Shown here one piece after another: positions 19,976 to 27,292 of a stretch of 29,083 nt of DNA; the first letter of the stretch is position 1, and each line of letters starts with the position of its first letter. The DNA comes from Candidatus Thorarchaeota archaeon (lineage in GTDB: Archaea > Asgardarchaeota > Thorarchaeia > Thorarchaeales > Thorarchaeaceae). A program made the position numbers and the translations under genes. The notes under the pieces were generated by a model. That model was not told the DNA's origin, did no database searches, and saw only the letters and a program-made list of their open reading frames with translations. The DNA lies in assembly GCA_046758445.1 (NCBI GenBank), contig JBHIAE010000035.1, forward strand, positions 1 to 29,083, read 5' to 3'.

Positions 19976-22900
19976 CTATTGAGCGTAGCGGTAAGAAGCA
20001 AAGTCCTCTGAAAGAACCCTATCGAGCGCATCGACAAATGAATCAGCGTTCTCTCTTGTGAAGACCATGGGCGGCTTGATTTTCAACACGTTGTTGTGTG
20101 GCCCATCAGTACTGATGAGAATGCCCAGATCTCTCAACCGGTTCACGACATAGGATGCTTGAGCAGTCGCAGGTTCTTGGCTCTCCCTGTTGAGGACCAG
20201 CTCAACGCCTAGGAAGAGTCCAAGTCCCCTTACGTCCCCAATTGTCTGGTGACGTTCTTTGAGCTCGCTCAGCCTCCTGAAGAGGTAGTCACCAACCTCC
20301 CTAGCTCTCTGCTGGAAACCCTCTTCTTCCATCACATCTAACACTGCGATACCCACAGCGCATGAAACCGGGTTCCCTCCCGTTGTGCTGAACCACTCCA
20401 TGCCGGTTTCAAACGACTTGGCAATCTCTGGCGTCGTCACGACTGCTCCTAAGGGATGTCCGTTTCCGATTGGTTTCCCCAAGGTTACTATGTCTGGCAC
20501 GACTCCCTGAGTTTCAAATCCCCAGAAATGAGTTCCAACTCTTCCAAAACCAACTTGCACTTCGTCTGCGATACATACCCCTCCGGCCTGACGCACTAAG
20601 TCAAATGCCTCTTGAAGGTAGTTCTCCGGGAAGACAATCTGTCCAGCGCATCCCATCAAGGGCTCGCACACAAAGGCGGCGGGGGCCTTTCCCTCCTTCT
20701 TGAGTCGCTTGACTACTCCACGAACGTCCTTGGCGTACTTAGACCCTGCACCTGAGTCACTGGCCTTGTAAGGCCCGCGGTAGACGTCAGGCGTTCTGAC
20801 CTTGTGCGCATGCGGCGGCGCTCCCTGCCCCCCAGGGCCATCGAACTTGTATGGGCTTATGTCGACCAAAGACCCTGTATTCCCGTGGTAGGCACCATCA
20901 ATCACAATCATGTCTTGATTACCGGTGTATGTCCTAGCTAAACGAAGTGCGAGCTCGTTTGCCTCACTCCCGCTATTCACGAAGAAGCAGACACTCAGTG
21001 GCTCGGGCATCTTGCTCACGAGCCGTTCTGCATATCGTACGAGATTCTCGTGAAGATATCTAGTATTGGTATTCAGGACTGCAGCTTGTTTCTGAAGAGC
21101 CTCTACGACTCGAGGGTGGGAATGACCGACATGCGGCACATTGTTTCGGACGTCCAGATATCGTCTTCCGAACTCGTCGTATAGATACTGCATATGCCCA
21201 CGTACGATGTTCAGTGGCTTCTCATACGACACACTCAACGTCCTGCTGATCTTGGCCTCTCTGACAGTTTGAATATCGTTCTTCTTCATTGTATCTTCGG
21301 GAAAGGCACTGTCTGGAATCCCTAGGATGAGATTGGGATTTGGGCTGATACTGAGCCATATATCGCGTTTAGTGGGAGCGGCCACACCAAAGAAGTCCCC
21401 TTCCCATCCAAGCATGTCAACAATAAGCTGGAAGTGTAGATGTGGAGGCCAGCCCCCATTGGTCGGATACTCGCCGACGCGGGCGATCTCCTGGCCCTTC
21501 TTGAACTCCTTTCCAATTCTCAACCCTTCTAGGGAGTCCACACTGAGATGGCCATAGAGTGTATGAAGCTTTAGGCCTGTCGACCCCAGGTCATGCTCCA
21601 GAACAATTGTTGGCCCATTGTCCAGAGGATTCTTGTTGTAGAGAAAGCTGTGAACCCTACCGTCCAATGGAGCCAAGACTCGTGTGCCTGACTCCATAAA
21701 CATGTCAATGCCCACATGGACAGTTCGCATCTCGCCAAAAGCTTCGTACTGTCCACCAGCGTATATCAGTCGCGCCTCATTGTACCTGCCGACGCCAAAC
21801 TCAGCACCTGTGTCTTTTAGCTTCCTAGCCACAAGATCTGTGAATTTGTCGATATCCGACAAGTCGTCCAGACTCGGAACGTCTAGACTCCCTACGCTTA
21901 GGTCGAATACAACCCCAGGTGTGGTCTGTAGATCAAACTCAACAATCGAGCCGATTTGTTCCGGGTTGCTTCTGAGCCACTCTTGGACTTCAGTACTCTG
22001 TGGGCAAGGCTCCAGGTTACATGCGTGTCTGAAGATGTATGTAGCAAGTCTAGGGTGAATCTCTCTCAGCAGGCGCATCAGGACTAAGATTTGCTCCTGA
22101 CTGATGTTCAGATACTCGTTGTTTGGTTCGAGCTTCCTCTGGTACGCCGCAATGGACATGCTTGCGGCAAGCCTGGTGCAGATTAGAGGAAACAAGAGCC
22201 CTATTTCTAGCTCTGTCAATGGAAATACCGAGTTGTACCCTCTCACTACTTCCGCTGCAGCGGAGAGAGGGTCGTTCTTCCCAAGCATCACGTAAGCGGC
22301 TGCGATTACGATCTCAGAAACCGTACACGTATGAACCATGTCACCAAAGTCTAAGATACCGAACGCCGCCTCTTCAAAGGGGTAGGCCTTGGTCACAACT
22401 ATGTTGTAGTCATTTGCATCGTTGTGCACTACGCTTGTGCGAAGATGTTGGATAAGCGGGACCACATTTTGTTCAAAGTACTGATAGAAATATCCCACGA
22501 GAGCAAGCCTTTCTTCGTCGACAATGTACTCCATGTGTCGCCTGATTACTTCACCGGCGTTCCTCAAGTCCCAGTAGAACTCGCGATCAGCCGCCGGGTG
22601 CGAAAAACTCTGCAGAGCCCTGCTAAGATGACCGATGAATTCACCCAACCTACGAAGCAGTTCAGTTGCGTGAGGGTTCACTTTCGCTAGGACCTTGCCA
22701 GGAAGAAAGGTCAACATTCTTACGAAATGAGAGTTCCCGTCTCCATCCTCAATTGAAGCAATGTGCGCCCCCTCAGAGGTCTCAACGACTTTCGGGCACT
22801 GAACCTGTATGCCATGGTCTGACAGGTGCTCCATCGCAGAGTTCTGGAACTCGAGCACTTCTTTCTCCTCAGACCCAGCGGCAATCTTCAAAACATATTC

Positions 22901-23056
22901 CTCGCCAGTCTGCGCACTCAAGAGATAGTTGCGGTCACGTTCGCTTGGGAGTTCTTGTGCAGAACCGGTGACGCCGTAGAGTTTACTGGCGATTCTGAGC
23001 GCGTCTTCTTCTGTGAATGACGGTCGGCTCGGGTCCCTGGATGACAGTTTCGTCAC
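19976..23056 (-). CDS. APH/hydroxylysine-kinase-like + M23 peptidase-like + class III aminotransferase (phospho-lyase-like) fusion
   Basis: HNDANDYN and DFGD (kinase); HVGID and HLHFQ (M23); [25 protein letters not shown] (PLP Lys). Confidence 0.93.
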
Positions 23057-23080: not shown

Positions 23081-23515
23081 CTAGTCGAACTGCAGACTAT
23101 CAACGTTGCATTCGTCATCGTCCCCTGGGCGTAGGTAGGCAATACGTTTTGGCTTTATTCGGATGAGCGTGAACTCAGGGTCGTTGGCATCTACCCAGTA
23201 GGTTTCAAAGTATGAAGCCATTGCAGCTAGGCTTTTTCGGACGGTCGGGTCTTCCACAATTGATGCATCTGCAGCAATTCTCAGGTAGCCTCTATTCTCT
23301 CCGTGCTTGACGGGTCTTACAATCTCTACGTTGGAGTTTTCTCTAATCTCGCCGACTTTCCTGCACTTCGTGCTTGTCAGTACAAAGAGATTCCCCAGGC
23401 TCTCTACCAGTGTCACCGGACGGACTCTCGGTTCACTGCCATCAACTGTGGCTAGGTAGACTGTGGGCTCATCCTCCAGAAGACTCTCAGGAGTGGGAAC
23501 AGAAGCTTCTGACAT
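23081..23515 (-). CDS. Pyridoxamine 5'-phosphate oxidase-like FMN-binding protein
   Basis: YLATVDGSEPRVRPV, KVGEIRENSNVE, DPEFTLIRIKP. Confidence 0.88.
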   Translation of the reverse strand: MSEASVPTPESLLEDEPTVYLATVDGSEPRVRPVTLVESLGNLFVLTSTKCRKVGEIRENSNVEIVRPVKHGENRGYLRIAADASIVEDPTVRKSLAAMASYFETYWVDANDPEFTLIRIKPKRIAYLRPGDDDECNVDSLQFD

Positions 23516-23560
23516 GACGATGATGCAGAGCTATCAATACAGATAAATCAAGTCCCCGGA

Positions 23561-24061
23561 ATGGTCGGAGCCATGAGAGAGGAGTCCGTGGAAGAGGTCA
23601 CTGTGACAGTCTTTCCCCCAATGCCAGGGATTGGCATCGTCGAGGACGAACCTGTGATTGAGGACGACGAGTCTTGCGGAGATGCATCACTTACTGTCCT
23701 GACAATCGACCCATCTGCCGACTCTGAATCTGCAGTTGTTTCATTCGATTCCAAAGACCCCATTGTGAGAATCAACCAGATGCTCAGCGAAGCCAAGGAA
23801 ACCCATGGTGACAGCCTTTGCATCCGTGTGGCAGACTATGATACTTCAGAGTCTCTTGATGATGCCATCGAGTGGTTGAACTCGGCTCTCAGGGGAAGTG
23901 GTGACAACACAGTCTTGGACTCTCAGAGCTTCTCGATGTTCATCGGTTCGTCTGCGCCAATAATCACCATCAACAATAGACTGTCTTTCGTAGGAACGGT
24001 TCCGACCAAGGACTTGCTTCTAGGCCGAATCTCTGCAGCCTTGAGGTCTGTTCGTTCTTGA
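23561..24061 (+). CDS. Hypothetical protein with a thioredoxin/ArsD-like C-terminus
   Basis: APIITINNRLSFVGTVPT resembles the cis-Pro strand of thioredoxin-like folds. Confidence 0.65.
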   Translation: MVGAMREESVEEVTVTVFPPMPGIGIVEDEPVIEDDESCGDASLTVLTIDPSADSESAVVSFDSKDPIVRINQMLSEAKETHGDSLCIRVADYDTSESLDDAIEWLNSALRGSGDNTVLDSQSFSMFIGSSAPIITINNRLSFVGTVPTKDLLLGRISAALRSVRS

Positions 24062-24085
24062 AGAAAAGGGGAGGATAGCCCCTCC
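24061..24085 (-). terminator. Terminator of trpB2
   Basis: Minus strand GGAGG-GGCTAT-CCTCC followed by CCTTTTCTT. Confidence 0.55.
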
Positions 24086-24128
24086 AAGATGTTACTCCAA
24101 GAGGAGCTATATTCCGATGGATCAATCA

Positions 24129-25484
24129 TCATGTGGTCTGCGGCAATGGTACGCCTTCTTTCGCGGTCACCATTTCCTTCTCTGGTACTAGTGCGCCATC
24201 CATCAAGGCTGCATAGGCGCCCATGTCAAAGTGTCCATGACCTGAGAGATTGAACACTATCACACTCTCACTGCCCGACTTCTTCGCCTCTAGTGCAGCA
24301 TCGATAGCGGCCTTCACCGCATGAGCCGTTTCAGGAGCAGGAATAACTCCCTCAGCCTTTGCGAACATCAAGGCGGACTCGAGTACTGAAATCTGATCAT
24401 ACGCAACGGGGCGAATTCGTCCCTCGTTGACAAGAGCACTAACCGTCGGCGCGACACCGTGATACCTCAGACCACCTGCATGTATCTCTGGAGGTGTGAA
24501 ATCCTTGCCCAGAGAATACATCTTTACCTTCGGGGTGATTCCGGCTGTGTCGCCAAAGTCATACTTGAACTCTCCTTCAGTCATTGACGGACAGGCTATG
24601 GGCTCGACGCCGATAAACTCGGTCGCCTCGAATCGGGAGTCCGCCATGAACGGGTACGAAATCCCAGCGAAGTTGCTTCCACCTCCGACGCAACCAATGA
24701 CCTTGTCGGGGGTCTCGCCCATCTTCTCGAGCTGGATTATGGTTTCCTGACCGATGACCGACTGATGGAGTAGGACATGATTCAACACGGAACCAATGGT
24801 GTACTTTGTGTCCTCTCTGTTCAGCGTATCCTCCAATGCTTCGCTTATGGCAATGCCCAGAGTGCCCGGATGCCCAGGAAACTCTTCATTCACCTTCCTA
24901 CCGAACTCGGTCTGGTCGGACGGGCTCGGGACTATTTCAGCACCGTATGCCCTCATTAGAGTTCCGCGGAACGCTTTCTGTTCATAACTGACACGCACCA
25001 TGTACACCATGGCTTCGAGGCCAAAATGAGCACACGCAAGGGCTACTGCGCTCCCCCATTGCCCGGCACCAGTCTCAGTCGCATATCGTGACACTCCCTC
25101 TTTCTTGGCATAGTATGCCTGAGTGAGTGCAGTGTTGAGCTTATGGCTCCCTGTCGGTGAAGCGTCCTCACGTTTGTAGTAGATCCTGGCGGGCGTATTC
25201 AGAGCCGCTTCAAGACCCACTGCCCTCTGTAGAGGAGTAGGACGCCCATATTTCATATACGCCTCTCGGACCTCTTCAGGAATCGGTACGAGTCTTTCCG
25301 GGGACATTTCCTGCTTCACACACTCCACGGCGAAGATGGCCATGAGCATCTCAGGACTGACTGGGTTTCCCGTTTCGGGGTTTATAGGAGGGGCCAACGG
25401 CTCCGCCAGGTGCGGCAGGATATTGACGTAGTTCTTTGGCACGTCTTCGATGTCTAGTAGGATTCGTGATTCTGTTCTAGTCAT
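24129..25484 (-). CDS. trpB: Tryptophan synthase beta chain, type 2 (TrpB2)
   Basis: GSHKLNTA, TETGAGQWG, GCVGGGSNF, HAGGLRYHG, PAPETAHA, FNLSGHG; stand-alone. Confidence 0.96.
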   Translation of the reverse strand: MTRTESRILLDIEDVPKNYVNILPHLAEPLAPPINPETGNPVSPEMLMAIFAVECVKQEMSPERLVPIPEEVREAYMKYGRPTPLQRAVGLEAALNTPARIYYKREDASPTGSHKLNTALTQAYYAKKEGVSRYATETGAGQWGSAVALACAHFGLEAMVYMVRVSYEQKAFRGTLMRAYGAEIVPSPSDQTEFGRKVNEEFPGHPGTLGIAISEALEDTLNREDTKYTIGSVLNHVLLHQSVIGQETIIQLEKMGETPDKVIGCVGGGSNFAGISYPFMADSRFEATEFIGVEPIACPSMTEGEFKYDFGDTAGITPKVKMYSLGKDFTPPEIHAGGLRYHGVAPTVSALVNEGRIRPVAYDQISVLESALMFAKAEGVIPAPETAHAVKAAIDAALEAKKSGSESVIVFNLSGHGHFDMGAYAALMDGALVPEKEMVTAKEGVPLPQTT

Positions 25485-25664
25485 TTCTTGTTTCTCCTTT
25501 TCTTGTCTTTCTGCAAGGCCCCTTCCTTCCCTTTTCTGGAAACGAGTCTGTCATCTGGCGCGCAGGCTTGGTCGAAAAATGAGTCTGGAAGACATCAGAT
25601 CGCGCCATCAGGCATCCAAAACTAGTCAGTCTGTGATGTGAGTGTGTGAGATATGGAGTACTAA

Positions 25665-25715
25665 CTAAACGGGCCTTCTTCGGCCCGAATTCCATTGGTA
25701 TATACACACGCTCAT
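25665..25715 (-). CDS. Candidate leader peptide MSVCIYQWNSGRRRPV in the trpB2 5' leader
   Basis: ATG 25715 preceded by GGGATGTGA; TGG at codon 8; TAG 25665-25667; embedded in a long stem. Confidence 0.5.
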   Translation of the reverse strand: MSVCIYQWNSGRRRPV

Positions 25716-25739
25716 CTATTCACATCCCTTGGAAAGGGT

Positions 25740-25829
25740 TGTACTGCACAAACAACTTCGCTATTTAAGTATGCCCGTTAGAGTACTATAGTGCGCACTT
25801 GTGTACATCTACGTATCACTTGTGTACAT
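25740..25829 (-). promoter_or_regulatory. trpB2 promoter with TRP-box-like repeats
   Basis: TATA-like CTTAAATA (minus strand, 25762-25769); CACTTGTGTACAT twice (25796-25808, 25817-25829, 21-bp period), each containing TGTACA; variants TGTACT 25740-25745 and AGTACT 25782-25787. Confidence 0.6.
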
Positions 25830-25948: not shown

Positions 25949-27292
25949 GTGATAGTAGTCGAGAACTTCTCCGACGCAATCGGAGAGGATGATGTCAGCA
26001 CACTCTGTGACCTACTAGACCAGGCTATATGTGATAATGGTTGGCCGGCAGCCCGGGATATGCTGAAGACTGCATTCCTTGCCAGACATCAAGGGCAGTG
26101 GTTTGCCATCAACAGACTGATTCTGAAGATCATCGACGCTGAAGAGTTGATTGGGTACGACGGCGATATCATCGAAGAGCTAGACACCCTTCAGGACGTT
26201 CGCAGCCTGACCGACCTCAGGACCACTCTGTATGACTTGCTTGTAGAGAGAGTGCGTAGCCAGATTGCAAGTAATGGATCACTATTGTTCTTCGACGTAG
26301 ATGCAATGTCCTCCAGACCCTCCAGTGTACTATTGGCCGAGCTACTTGAGGCACGAAAGAAGCAGTTCGTTGACAGCGCAACCGCTTTTCTTTCTCAAAG
26401 ACCTTCTTCTGCCGAGTGGACCGAATCCCCTCCACTTTGGACTACTAGCTACGGCCTAGACCTTCTAGTCAGGCTTGACAGCTTCAATGACGACTACTTT
26501 AGCGAGTTCCCCTTGACATGGATTAGGCAGAACCTAGAACCTATTCTATCGGACTTGGGAGTTGATGAAATCGCACATACAGATGAACAGGGACCCACCT
26601 CTGAGGTCCTGATGTCTGAGAGAATGGAGCTTCTCGCGGTAGCGATTGTGAGCCGCTTCAACAACTATCCAGAAAGACTAGCTTGGGACGAGCCCTGGTA
26701 CATCATATTCTCTTCCGGGCATAGGGACTCCTTTCAGTTTGTGCTCGATGTTTCTAGTGGAGCATATCGTTGGATGAAAGAGATGGTCTCAGAAGTCTTT
26801 GATGATGATGACCTCAAGACTCTTACACAGGACATCAGAGCTAGTATGTTGCGAGGAGCGGTAAGAGCGCTCTCATTTGTAGGAACCACTGAAGCTGTAG
26901 AGCTCTTAGGAATGCTTCTGGCTTGGGAGGGTACAGAGAATGCTCTTCTCTACATCCAATCAATGAGTTATCGTGAGTACTTTCATTACCGCGACTCCAT
27001 TCAAGACTGCATTCTTGACTCATTGTCCAAGCTTGACCGCGAAACCATTCAGAAACATGTAATCGCGTTCGTCAACGACCAACTGTGGGATGTCAAAAAG
27101 AGCAAATGGAGTGAGAGTGCCTTTTTGACAGGGACCTCATTAGAGCTGCTGAAGGTTGCCACAGGCATGATTCTTAGGAAGAACCTGTATATAATAAGCG
27201 AGAAACTGATGGACCTTCATAAGGTTGGAGAACTCAATCCCGACATAAGTGGCTTCGCAGCCTCAGTCCTAAAGGATTTCGAGCTAGAGTAG
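25949..27292 (+). CDS. Hypothetical alpha-helical protein with a HEAT-like repeat
   Basis: 447-aa ORF; LRGAVRALSFVGTTEAVELL HEAT/PBS-like segment. Confidence 0.75.
   Translation: MIVVENFSDAIGEDDVSTLCDLLDQAICDNGWPAARDMLKTAFLARHQGQWFAINRLILKIIDAEELIGYDGDIIEELDTLQDVRSLTDLRTTLYDLLVERVRSQIASNGSLLFFDVDAMSSRPSSVLLAELLEARKKQFVDSATAFLSQRPSSAEWTESPPLWTTSYGLDLLVRLDSFNDDYFSEFPLTWIRQNLEPILSDLGVDEIAHTDEQGPTSEVLMSERMELLAVAIVSRFNNYPERLAWDEPWYIIFSSGHRDSFQFVLDVSSGAYRWMKEMVSEVFDDDDLKTLTQDIRASMLRGAVRALSFVGTTEAVELLGMLLAWEGTENALLYIQSMSYREYFHYRDSIQDCILDSLSKLDRETIQKHVIAFVNDQLWDVKKSKWSESAFLTGTSLELLKVATGMILRKNLYIISEKLMDLHKVGELNPDISGFAASVLKDFELE

Follow-up and report, generated by a model that had tools for sequence, protein, structure and literature searches.

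In the 29,083-nucleotide (nt) stretch of Candidatus Thorarchaeota contig JBHIAE010000035.1 analysed here (the window), the gene trpB2 is preceded by a leader of about 255 nt. Judged by its conservation among relatives, this leader is best explained as a conserved cis-regulatory RNA holding a short upstream open reading frame (uORF), with a tryptophan (Trp) codon as its constant element. It is probably a Trp sensor read by the ribosome, in a single-codon Thorarchaeal variant. Comparison with relatives establishes the open reading frame (ORF), its Trp codon, a hairpin 5 nt behind this codon (P1c), the helices P1 and P0, and an exclusive link to trpB2. An original prediction, made from the sequence of the window, had described the uORF, the Trp codon, the hairpin, the stems and a TATA-like box; all of them are present on the minus strand at the positions it gave (Table 1), and the long-range helices P0 and P2 are additions to its list of elements. 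Its claim of a Trp-responsive leader switch holds in part: a ribosome-read Trp sensor is the best reading of the leader, but the proposed likeness to the TnaC peptide, a reading of the GC hairpin as a terminator and a switch at the trpB2 ribosome-binding site (RBS) did not withstand the analyses described below. The host had been called Asgard-like, in agreement with the closest trpB2 loci, which lie in public genomes named Candidatus Thorarchaeota or Promethearchaeota.

The comparison set consisted of 54 distinct leaders from 13 genera (designated g1, g2, etc.) and one paralogous copy, 14 lineages altogether. In these leaders trpB2 is again preceded by the uORF with its Trp codon and by the stems, with covariation, so that the conservation test named in the original prediction did not refute it. 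The same small ORF and hairpin were seen upstream of trpB2 in all same-genus and same-family regions inspected. The strict pattern CCAATGG-N4-6-GGG-N8-14-CCC-NNN-TAG matches once in the host genome and in 39 of the 85 other genomes of the family; elsewhere in the phylum it was found in 2 of 315 genomes, in neither case near trpB2, and the reversed pattern, used as a control, gave no matches. A covariance model (R1) built from the 54 leaders gives 89 bits at the window leader, no other site in the host genome exceeding 13 bits. It matches 57 of the 85 other family genomes, as a rule at one site per genome. Its occurrence follows that of trpB2, also present in 57 of the 85, and the mismatches between the two that were checked are accounted for by contig ends or partial genes. 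Wherever the contig is long enough, 146-181 nt separate the end of the element from the trpB2 start, and no further copies before other genes were detected in the host genome by the pattern and R1 scans. Two weak matches within the family (G340:C345 and G009:C21) have neither uORF nor hairpin and look like chance. In one locus (L197, G347:C167:6700-8650), a broken trpB2 with an 89-amino-acid open stretch followed by a disruption stands behind a decayed leader, where the uORF start is lost, a stop comes right after the Trp+1 position and the hairpin is weakened.

An ATG-started frame is open through the UGG codon in 50 of the 54 leaders (12 of the 14 lineages), the remaining four starting with GTG, while ATG-started frames through the same site in the other two registers are open in 2 and 1 leaders, respectively. 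Genus g5 has 2 nt less between the GAGCGUGC block and UGG, compensated by a start codon displaced upstream by 5 nt, which maintains the frame; it is kept as well in three leaders with 3-nt insertions in the hairpin loop (L038, L120, L149). The stop codon is TAG in 49 leaders, TGA in three and TAA in two; the usual stop is lost in g7, g24, g28 and g29, where the frame extends for another 4-9 codons. All 54 leaders contain at least one UGG, and the residues next to it vary, Trp usually following Gln (His instead in g27). Taken together, these regularities are good comparative evidence, short of proof, that the frame is read by the ribosome; on such grounds the uORF is under selection as an ORF. 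Some leaders illustrate its variation. In the family genome G348, two copies of trpB2 lie about 11 kb from each other, and a leader element stands before each of them (L154, G348:C6:11230-11760, and L155, 22030-22560); one uORF encodes HWYW and the other HCHW, the usual UGG of the second copy being changed to UGU and a UGG two codons later being kept. Leader L014 (G022:C57) has a GTG-started main uORF and an overlapping out-of-frame ATG-started ORF, MKSRENW, with Trp before the stop; in L156, from a congener, this ATG shares the frame of the main uORF.

The hairpin P1c lies inside the uORF, and its GGG begins 5 nt past UGG in 52 of the 54 leaders and 6 nt past it in g29. Substitutions on both sides affect four of its six pairs, the observed covariation score was reached by none of 500 shuffles, and slid registers scored far lower. 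In helix P1 the part of the uORF between start codon and UGG, its 5' half, pairs with a site 10-45 nt past the stop, forming a long hairpin that encloses the ORF. In helix P0 the bases at the beginning of the predicted transcript, often with the Shine-Dalgarno (SD)-like bases of the uORF among them, pair with a site ending 22-35 nt before trpB2. Its arms differ by genus (CCCUUUCC/GGAGAGGG, CCGAGUGUGG/CCACACUCGG, CCACCUUCAAGG/CCUUGAAGGUGG, GCCCUUUCGA/UCGAGAGGGC and UCCUGAGG/CCUCGGGA), and the contiguous-helix score is 8.9 for cognate arms, 6.8 for arms of other genera and 6.6 for shuffled ones, with scores of at least 8 in 59, 16 and 13% of the cases, respectively. RNAalifold recovers P0 independently in g1 and g5. 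When duplex energies of cognate and non-cognate arms were compared for P0 and P1, the difference was only about 4 kcal/mol, because the arms are partly homologous between genera; the contiguous-helix scores gave the clearer result.

A further helix, P2, is probable, being less firm than P0: it pairs a pyrimidine tract just 3' of P1 with a purine tract just 5' of the P0 3' arm, and a helix of this type is the top match at those positions in about 18 of the 54 leaders (g1, g5, g7, g2, g24, g29). At the position of P3, the second stem of the original prediction, other members of g1 carry a hairpin of different sequence, GCUGAC...GUCAGC. P0, P2 and P3 are all present in the minimum free energy (MFE) fold of the window leader computed from the predicted transcription start, and in this model P0 and P2 close the whole leader into one domain. 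Pairing of GAUGUGA with UCACAUC, previously described as an alternative register, is part of the MFE folds. The whole leader folds no better than its shuffles (z = -0.69 and -1.29 in two runs), and a hand-picked 101-nt piece gave z = -3.0; single-sequence thermodynamics is weak evidence here, and the case for more than chance rests on comparison.

Such a domain could itself be the sensor. The leader would then regulate in cis as a structured RNA, in the manner of a riboswitch or by binding a protein or tRNA-Trp; the multi-helix domain and the unpaired CCAAUGG would do the sensing, and the ORF would be incidental or auxiliary. This would suit the closed arrangement of P0, P1, P1c, P2 and P3 with its covarying helices and invariant unpaired bases, the presence of a single Trp codon, the Gln codon that is CAA and never CAG, and the leader foldings, in which no ribosome-dependent alternative fold was detected. 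Moreover, conservation of the peptide beyond what the RNA demands is slight: in the motif G-x-x-x-P, the stem's GGG and CCC encode Gly and Pro, P/R/L and R/G/W stand between these two, matching what the stem permits, and Gly and Pro change along with compensatory changes of the stem. In g24 the stem GGCUCC/GGAGCC turns both into Ala, and in g7 the stems GCGUCC/GGACGC or GGUCCUUC/GAAGGACC give Val/Leu...Thr or Arg...Arg. An incidental ORF, however, is difficult to reconcile with the preference for one frame through UGG described above, with start codons that shift such that the frame stays, and with stops that vary only among the three stop codons. Related Asgard leaders with 3-5 alternating Trp codons inside the ORF also fit codon reading, and no Rfam family, T-box and Trp_leader (RF00513) included, was matched at the gathering score, nor by the leader up to E 10; a tRNA match in the window sequence was likewise absent. 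We consider a purely RNA-based sensor unlikely.

The original prediction had likened the uORF to TnaC, the leader peptide of the E. coli tryptophanase operon, and an arrest peptide of this kind would stall the ribosome at the stop codon through the nascent chain and free tryptophan. TnaC responds to free Trp, inducing a catabolic operon by way of Rho. The window peptide resembles it in having a single Trp and a proline near the C-terminus, which reads Arg-Pro-Val-stop, and many relatives end in G-P-x-G-P-V-stop. In TnaC, Trp12 and Asp16 are strictly conserved, and the arrested ribosome holds Pro24 in the P site and contains the stop codon in its A site (PMC8429421). These defining residues and their spacing are absent from the Thorarchaeal uORFs and not conserved among them: no acidic residue is found at Trp+4, the peptide ends with Val, Thr, Ile or Ala, Gly and Pro are replaced wherever the stem is kept (by Ala in g24, by Val/Leu...Thr or Arg...Arg in g7), and the stop lies 8 to 18 codons past Trp, depending on the genus. 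As the C-terminus varies wherever the stem allows, the TnaC analogy has to be given up, and a sensor of this type is highly improbable.

For the ribosome-read sensor, the following course of events may be envisaged. A ribosome would load on the uORF during transcription of the leader. With charged tRNA-Trp plentiful, it would pass the GC hairpin to the stop codon just behind and depart, after which the uORF would fold into P1 and the leader would close via P2 and P0. With charged tRNA-Trp scarce, it would pause with UGG in its A site, covering the 5' arm of P1, and the leader would be kept from its closed fold, altering the fate of the trpB2 message. The uORF constitutes the 5' arm of P1, and geometry dictates that P1 is blocked by any ribosome that waits at UGG. 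When UGG occupies the A site, P1c would have its first G-C pair at about +12 from the first P-site base. The mRNA entrance of the bacterial ribosome is at about +12 from the first P-site base, and by analogy the beginning of P1c would sit at the entrance. We infer that the uORF is translated, that the supply of Trp-tRNA sets the dwell time of the ribosome, and that the resulting change of the leader fold regulates trpB2; biologically, higher production of TrpB2 under Trp shortage would be expected. Candidate outputs are read-through, factor-dependent termination on the unfolded leader, mRNA stability via the paired 5' end, and translation via the closed fold. It is possible, though doubtful, that occupancy of the uORF decides the closure of the five-helix domain with an output that dispenses with an intrinsic U-run terminator, a new archaeal way of coupling translation to mRNA fate; factor-dependent termination, shielding of the paired 5' end from 5'-3' decay and control by the closed fold would be examples of such coupling. 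It would then operate in the prokaryotes closest to eukaryotes, in which control by uORFs is the norm.

Several observations weigh against a ribosome-read sensor or against particular outputs of it. First, the window uORF has a single regulatory Trp codon and its family members have 1-3, extra Trp codons not being enriched overall (0.014 per codon vs 0.016 in the window proteins). Attenuators of the trpL type normally contain at least two regulatory codons. Second, no nucleotide of CCAAUGG varies, not even the third base of the Gln codon or the base before this codon, and because of this invariance an RNA-level role for these bases is conceivable. Third, the SD signal before the uORF is weak: a core SD tetramer is present at -16 to -4 of the uORF start in 27 of the 54 leaders, compared with 12% of random leader positions and with 47 of 54 for trpB2 itself. 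Fourth, the end of the uORF frame deviates in two leaders, by a TAG in the hairpin loop (L132) and by a change of TAG to TTG (L010).

Finally, the tests of the output step were negative. When 40 leaders were folded by partition function with UGG or the stop covered by a ribosome footprint, accessibility of the trpB2 RBS was unchanged in most, going down in a few and up in one, the window leader. The best sites complementary to the RBS were no better than those for a shuffled RBS (z near 0). The P1 3' arm was the top anti-RBS site in 14 of the 54 leaders vs about 8 expected, and matches between this arm and the RBS found by eye (g1, g5, g9, g28) are not evidence, because shuffled RBS score equally. 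A thermodynamic switch on the trpB2 ribosome site was not found in these two analyses, and sequestration of the RBS was rejected on their outcome. The GC hairpin followed by TTTAGTT is not upheld as a terminator; the hairpin lies inside the ORF and TTTAG holds its stop codon. A run of at least five T is the archaeal signal for intrinsic termination. Such runs occur anywhere in the leader in 9 of the 54 sequences, and 10 of the 54 do not have even four T in a row. An oligo-T attenuator was rejected, the T-run not being conserved; the pyrimidine tract after P1 is better read as a strand of P2. No conserved alternative partner for a freed P1 3' arm was found in the leaders analysed.

Leaders of trpB2 in other Asgard families bear on the number of Trp codons. 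Sense ORFs ending with at least three Trp in 12 residues were found in 13 of 31 trpB2 upstream regions from these families, whereas in the antisense control they were found in 1 of 31; examples of such ends are MTFWRWQWQWRS, MATLRIQSWQWPWCWQ, ...FWRWQWCWRWQ and ...IWAWRWLLWP, each followed by a stop. They share with the Thorarchaeal form the gene, the phylum, a uORF of about 16-18 codons in a structured leader and the placement of Trp codons a short distance ahead of the stop. They have 3-6 alternating UGG codons (WxWxW), and a hairpin with a U-run comes after the uORF in one AT-rich leader (L173). In contrast, the Thorarchaeal form has a single UGG (sometimes 2-3) and a GC hairpin inside the ORF, without a conserved U-run; the window uORF does not have three Trp near its end, and what it shares is the folded leader directly before trpB2. 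On this comparison, the single-Trp Thorarchaeal form is a variant of the Asgard Trp-rich leader ORFs of trpB2. No publication on the Trp-rich trpB2 leaders of other Asgard lineages was found. In addition, uORFs with consecutive Trp codons precede trpB2 in four bacterial regions (L049, L055, L063, L109; three contigs named Bacteroidota and one Ignavibacteriae), with YWWWLW, AWWWWRP and YWWWRWQ-stop as examples; they look like bacterial-type Trp leaders.

A second layer of control is probably located at the promoter. Boxes like TTTAAATA, TTTATAA or CTTATAAG occupy the position of the TATA-like box in relatives, and the usual archaeal TATA spacing predicts a transcription start near 25742-25739. 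Upstream of the 54 leaders, TGTACA, which we take to be the TRP-box consensus, occurs 77 times in 5182 nt, vs about 1.3 expected, and is present in 50 of the 54 regions. TrpY also acts at trpB2 in Methanothermobacter. In Methanothermobacter thermautotrophicus, TrpY binds TRP boxes at trp promoters (PMC6737238). The TGTACA boxes are a candidate operator of the TrpY type, which would form a protein-based layer separate from the leader: both systems have such boxes at a trp promoter, yet TrpY and the TRP box form a protein-DNA mechanism at the promoter, and the Thorarchaeal element is a leader RNA. In another Asgard family, two trpB2 genes without a long leader (L021 and L023, from G030 and G040) have a TGTACA/TGCACA pair abutting the TATA box, and the divergent upstream gene encodes a putative DNA-binding regulator, as judged by eye.

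Control by the promoter could even be the whole story, with a TrpY-type repressor at the TGTACA boxes and a leader and ORF that serve mRNA stability or basal translation, or with an ORF that encodes a functional small protein. The strong enrichment and conservation of the boxes and the known binding of TrpY would agree with this, and pairing of the 5' end in P0 could simply protect the mRNA. Neither the fixed frame of the ORF nor its invariant Trp codon 5 nt ahead of a hairpin is required, however, of a stability element; the peptide varies too freely for a folded or trans-acting product, and the Trp-rich uORFs of sister lineages argue for codon sensing. We regard regulation at the promoter alone as quite unlikely.

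The gene downstream is a plausible target for a Trp gauge. Its product scores 658.7 bits against NCBIfam PRK12391 (a TrpB-like pyridoxal 5'-phosphate (PLP) enzyme) and only 189.5 bits against the canonical TrpB model, with a cut-off of 392.45. Neither TrpA nor indole-3-glycerol phosphate synthase (IGPS) was detected in the host genome (3.25 Mb in 113 contigs, 92.7% complete), and TrpA is present in only 7 of 86 genomes of the family. Since these partners are undetected or rare, TrpB2 appears to stand alone, and gauging of Trp would make sense. To judge from the literature on TrpB2, its role may be the synthesis of Trp from scavenged indole.

The principle of ribosome-mediated attenuation by leader peptides has been described in bacteria (PMC1183508). 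Like trpL of E. coli and Salmonella, the Thorarchaeal leader has a short ORF before a Trp-pathway gene, with a codon for the end product, placed within the 5' arm of a hairpin that a stalled ribosome would prevent. Unlike trpL, which belongs to bacterial hosts and has a tandem pair of Trp codons, it is found in an archaeon with one Trp codon; neither a terminator made of hairpin and U-run nor a demonstrable 2:3 antiterminator was detected in it, it is closed by P0 and P2, and it does not match RF00513.

For bacteria, it is textbook knowledge that amino acids are sensed by ribosomes that read a leader ORF. The literature searched yielded bacterial leader peptides, TnaC and eukaryotic uORFs only, and no archaeal leader-peptide sensor, an absence that is not proof. 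Beyond TrpY, little is known of the regulation of archaeal Trp biosynthesis, according to a 2019 paper (PMC6737238). If the proposed reading is true, translation is coupled to gene control by way of uORFs in Asgard archaea; the Thorarchaeal form would show a single Trp codon, together with an RNA fold, to be enough when a classical terminator is lacking; and the stand-alone TrpB2 is marked as a closely tuned gene in probable Trp auxotrophs. With about 240 nt, the leader is also a compact part that can be tested in studies of archaeal transcription-translation coupling.

Table 1. Features of the trpB2 leader region, in window positions.
Feature	Position	Strand	Sequence, pairing and remarks
TGTACA boxes (two)	25828-25823, 25807-25802	minus	Upstream of the TATA-like box
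TATA-like box	25769-25762	minus	CTTAAATA; from sequence
P0 5' arm	25738-25731	minus	CCCUUUCC; at the predicted mRNA 5' end; pairs with 25526-25519
SD-like sequence of the uORF	25728-25720	minus	GGGAUGUGA; 4 nt upstream of the uORF start codon
uORF	25715-25665	minus	16 codons and stop, peptide MSVCIYQWNSGRRRPV; ATG 25715-25713, TAG 25667-25665
Outer P1 stem	25714-25705 / 25648-25639	minus	UGAGCGUGUG (uORF start) with CACACACUCA; 9 of 10 pairs, one C.A mismatch
Trp codon	25694-25692	minus	UGG within the invariant heptamer CCAAUGG, 25698-25692
P1c hairpin	25687-25682 / 25675-25670	minus	CGGGCC-GAAGAA-GGCCCG; inside the uORF, stop 3 nt past the stem
P1 3' arm	25657-25635	minus	MFE folds, RNAalifold
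UCCAU	25657-25653	minus	Pairs with AUGGA 25695-25691 around the Trp codon
UCACAUC	25641-25635	minus	Pairs with SD-like GAUGUGA; belongs to the MFE folds
P2 5' strand	25621-25615	minus	UUUUGGA (pyrimidine-rich tract); pairs with UCCAGAA 25540-25534
P3 hairpin	25607-25601 / 25562-25556	minus	UGGCGCG / CGCGCCA; MFE fold
P2 3' strand	25540-25534	minus	UCCAGAA; MFE fold
P0 3' arm	25526-25519	minus	GGAAGGGG; ends 34 nt before the trpB2 start
trpB2 (proposed regulated gene)	24129-25484	minus	ATG at 25484; SD GGAG 25497-25494

The intergenic region upstream of trpB2 is 464 nt long. Beyond it, a divergent 447-amino-acid ORF (25949-27292, plus strand) has no Pfam or NCBIfam match and no counterpart beside trpB2 in relatives. 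Directly 3' of trpB2, at 23081-24132 on the minus strand, are located two small ORFs of 69 and 91 amino acids belonging to no family and a gene for a PNPOx-like protein (144 amino acids, PF01243), in a gene order that is the same in relatives of the genus; the PLP enzyme TrpB2 and the PNPOx-fold protein may share one operon. They are followed on the minus strand by a 1026-amino-acid ORF (19976-23056) that combines, according to Pfam, an APH phosphotransferase (residues 35-275), Peptidase_M23 (446-545) and a class-III aminotransferase (614-1015); the place of this three-domain fusion downstream of trpB2 is conserved within the genus.

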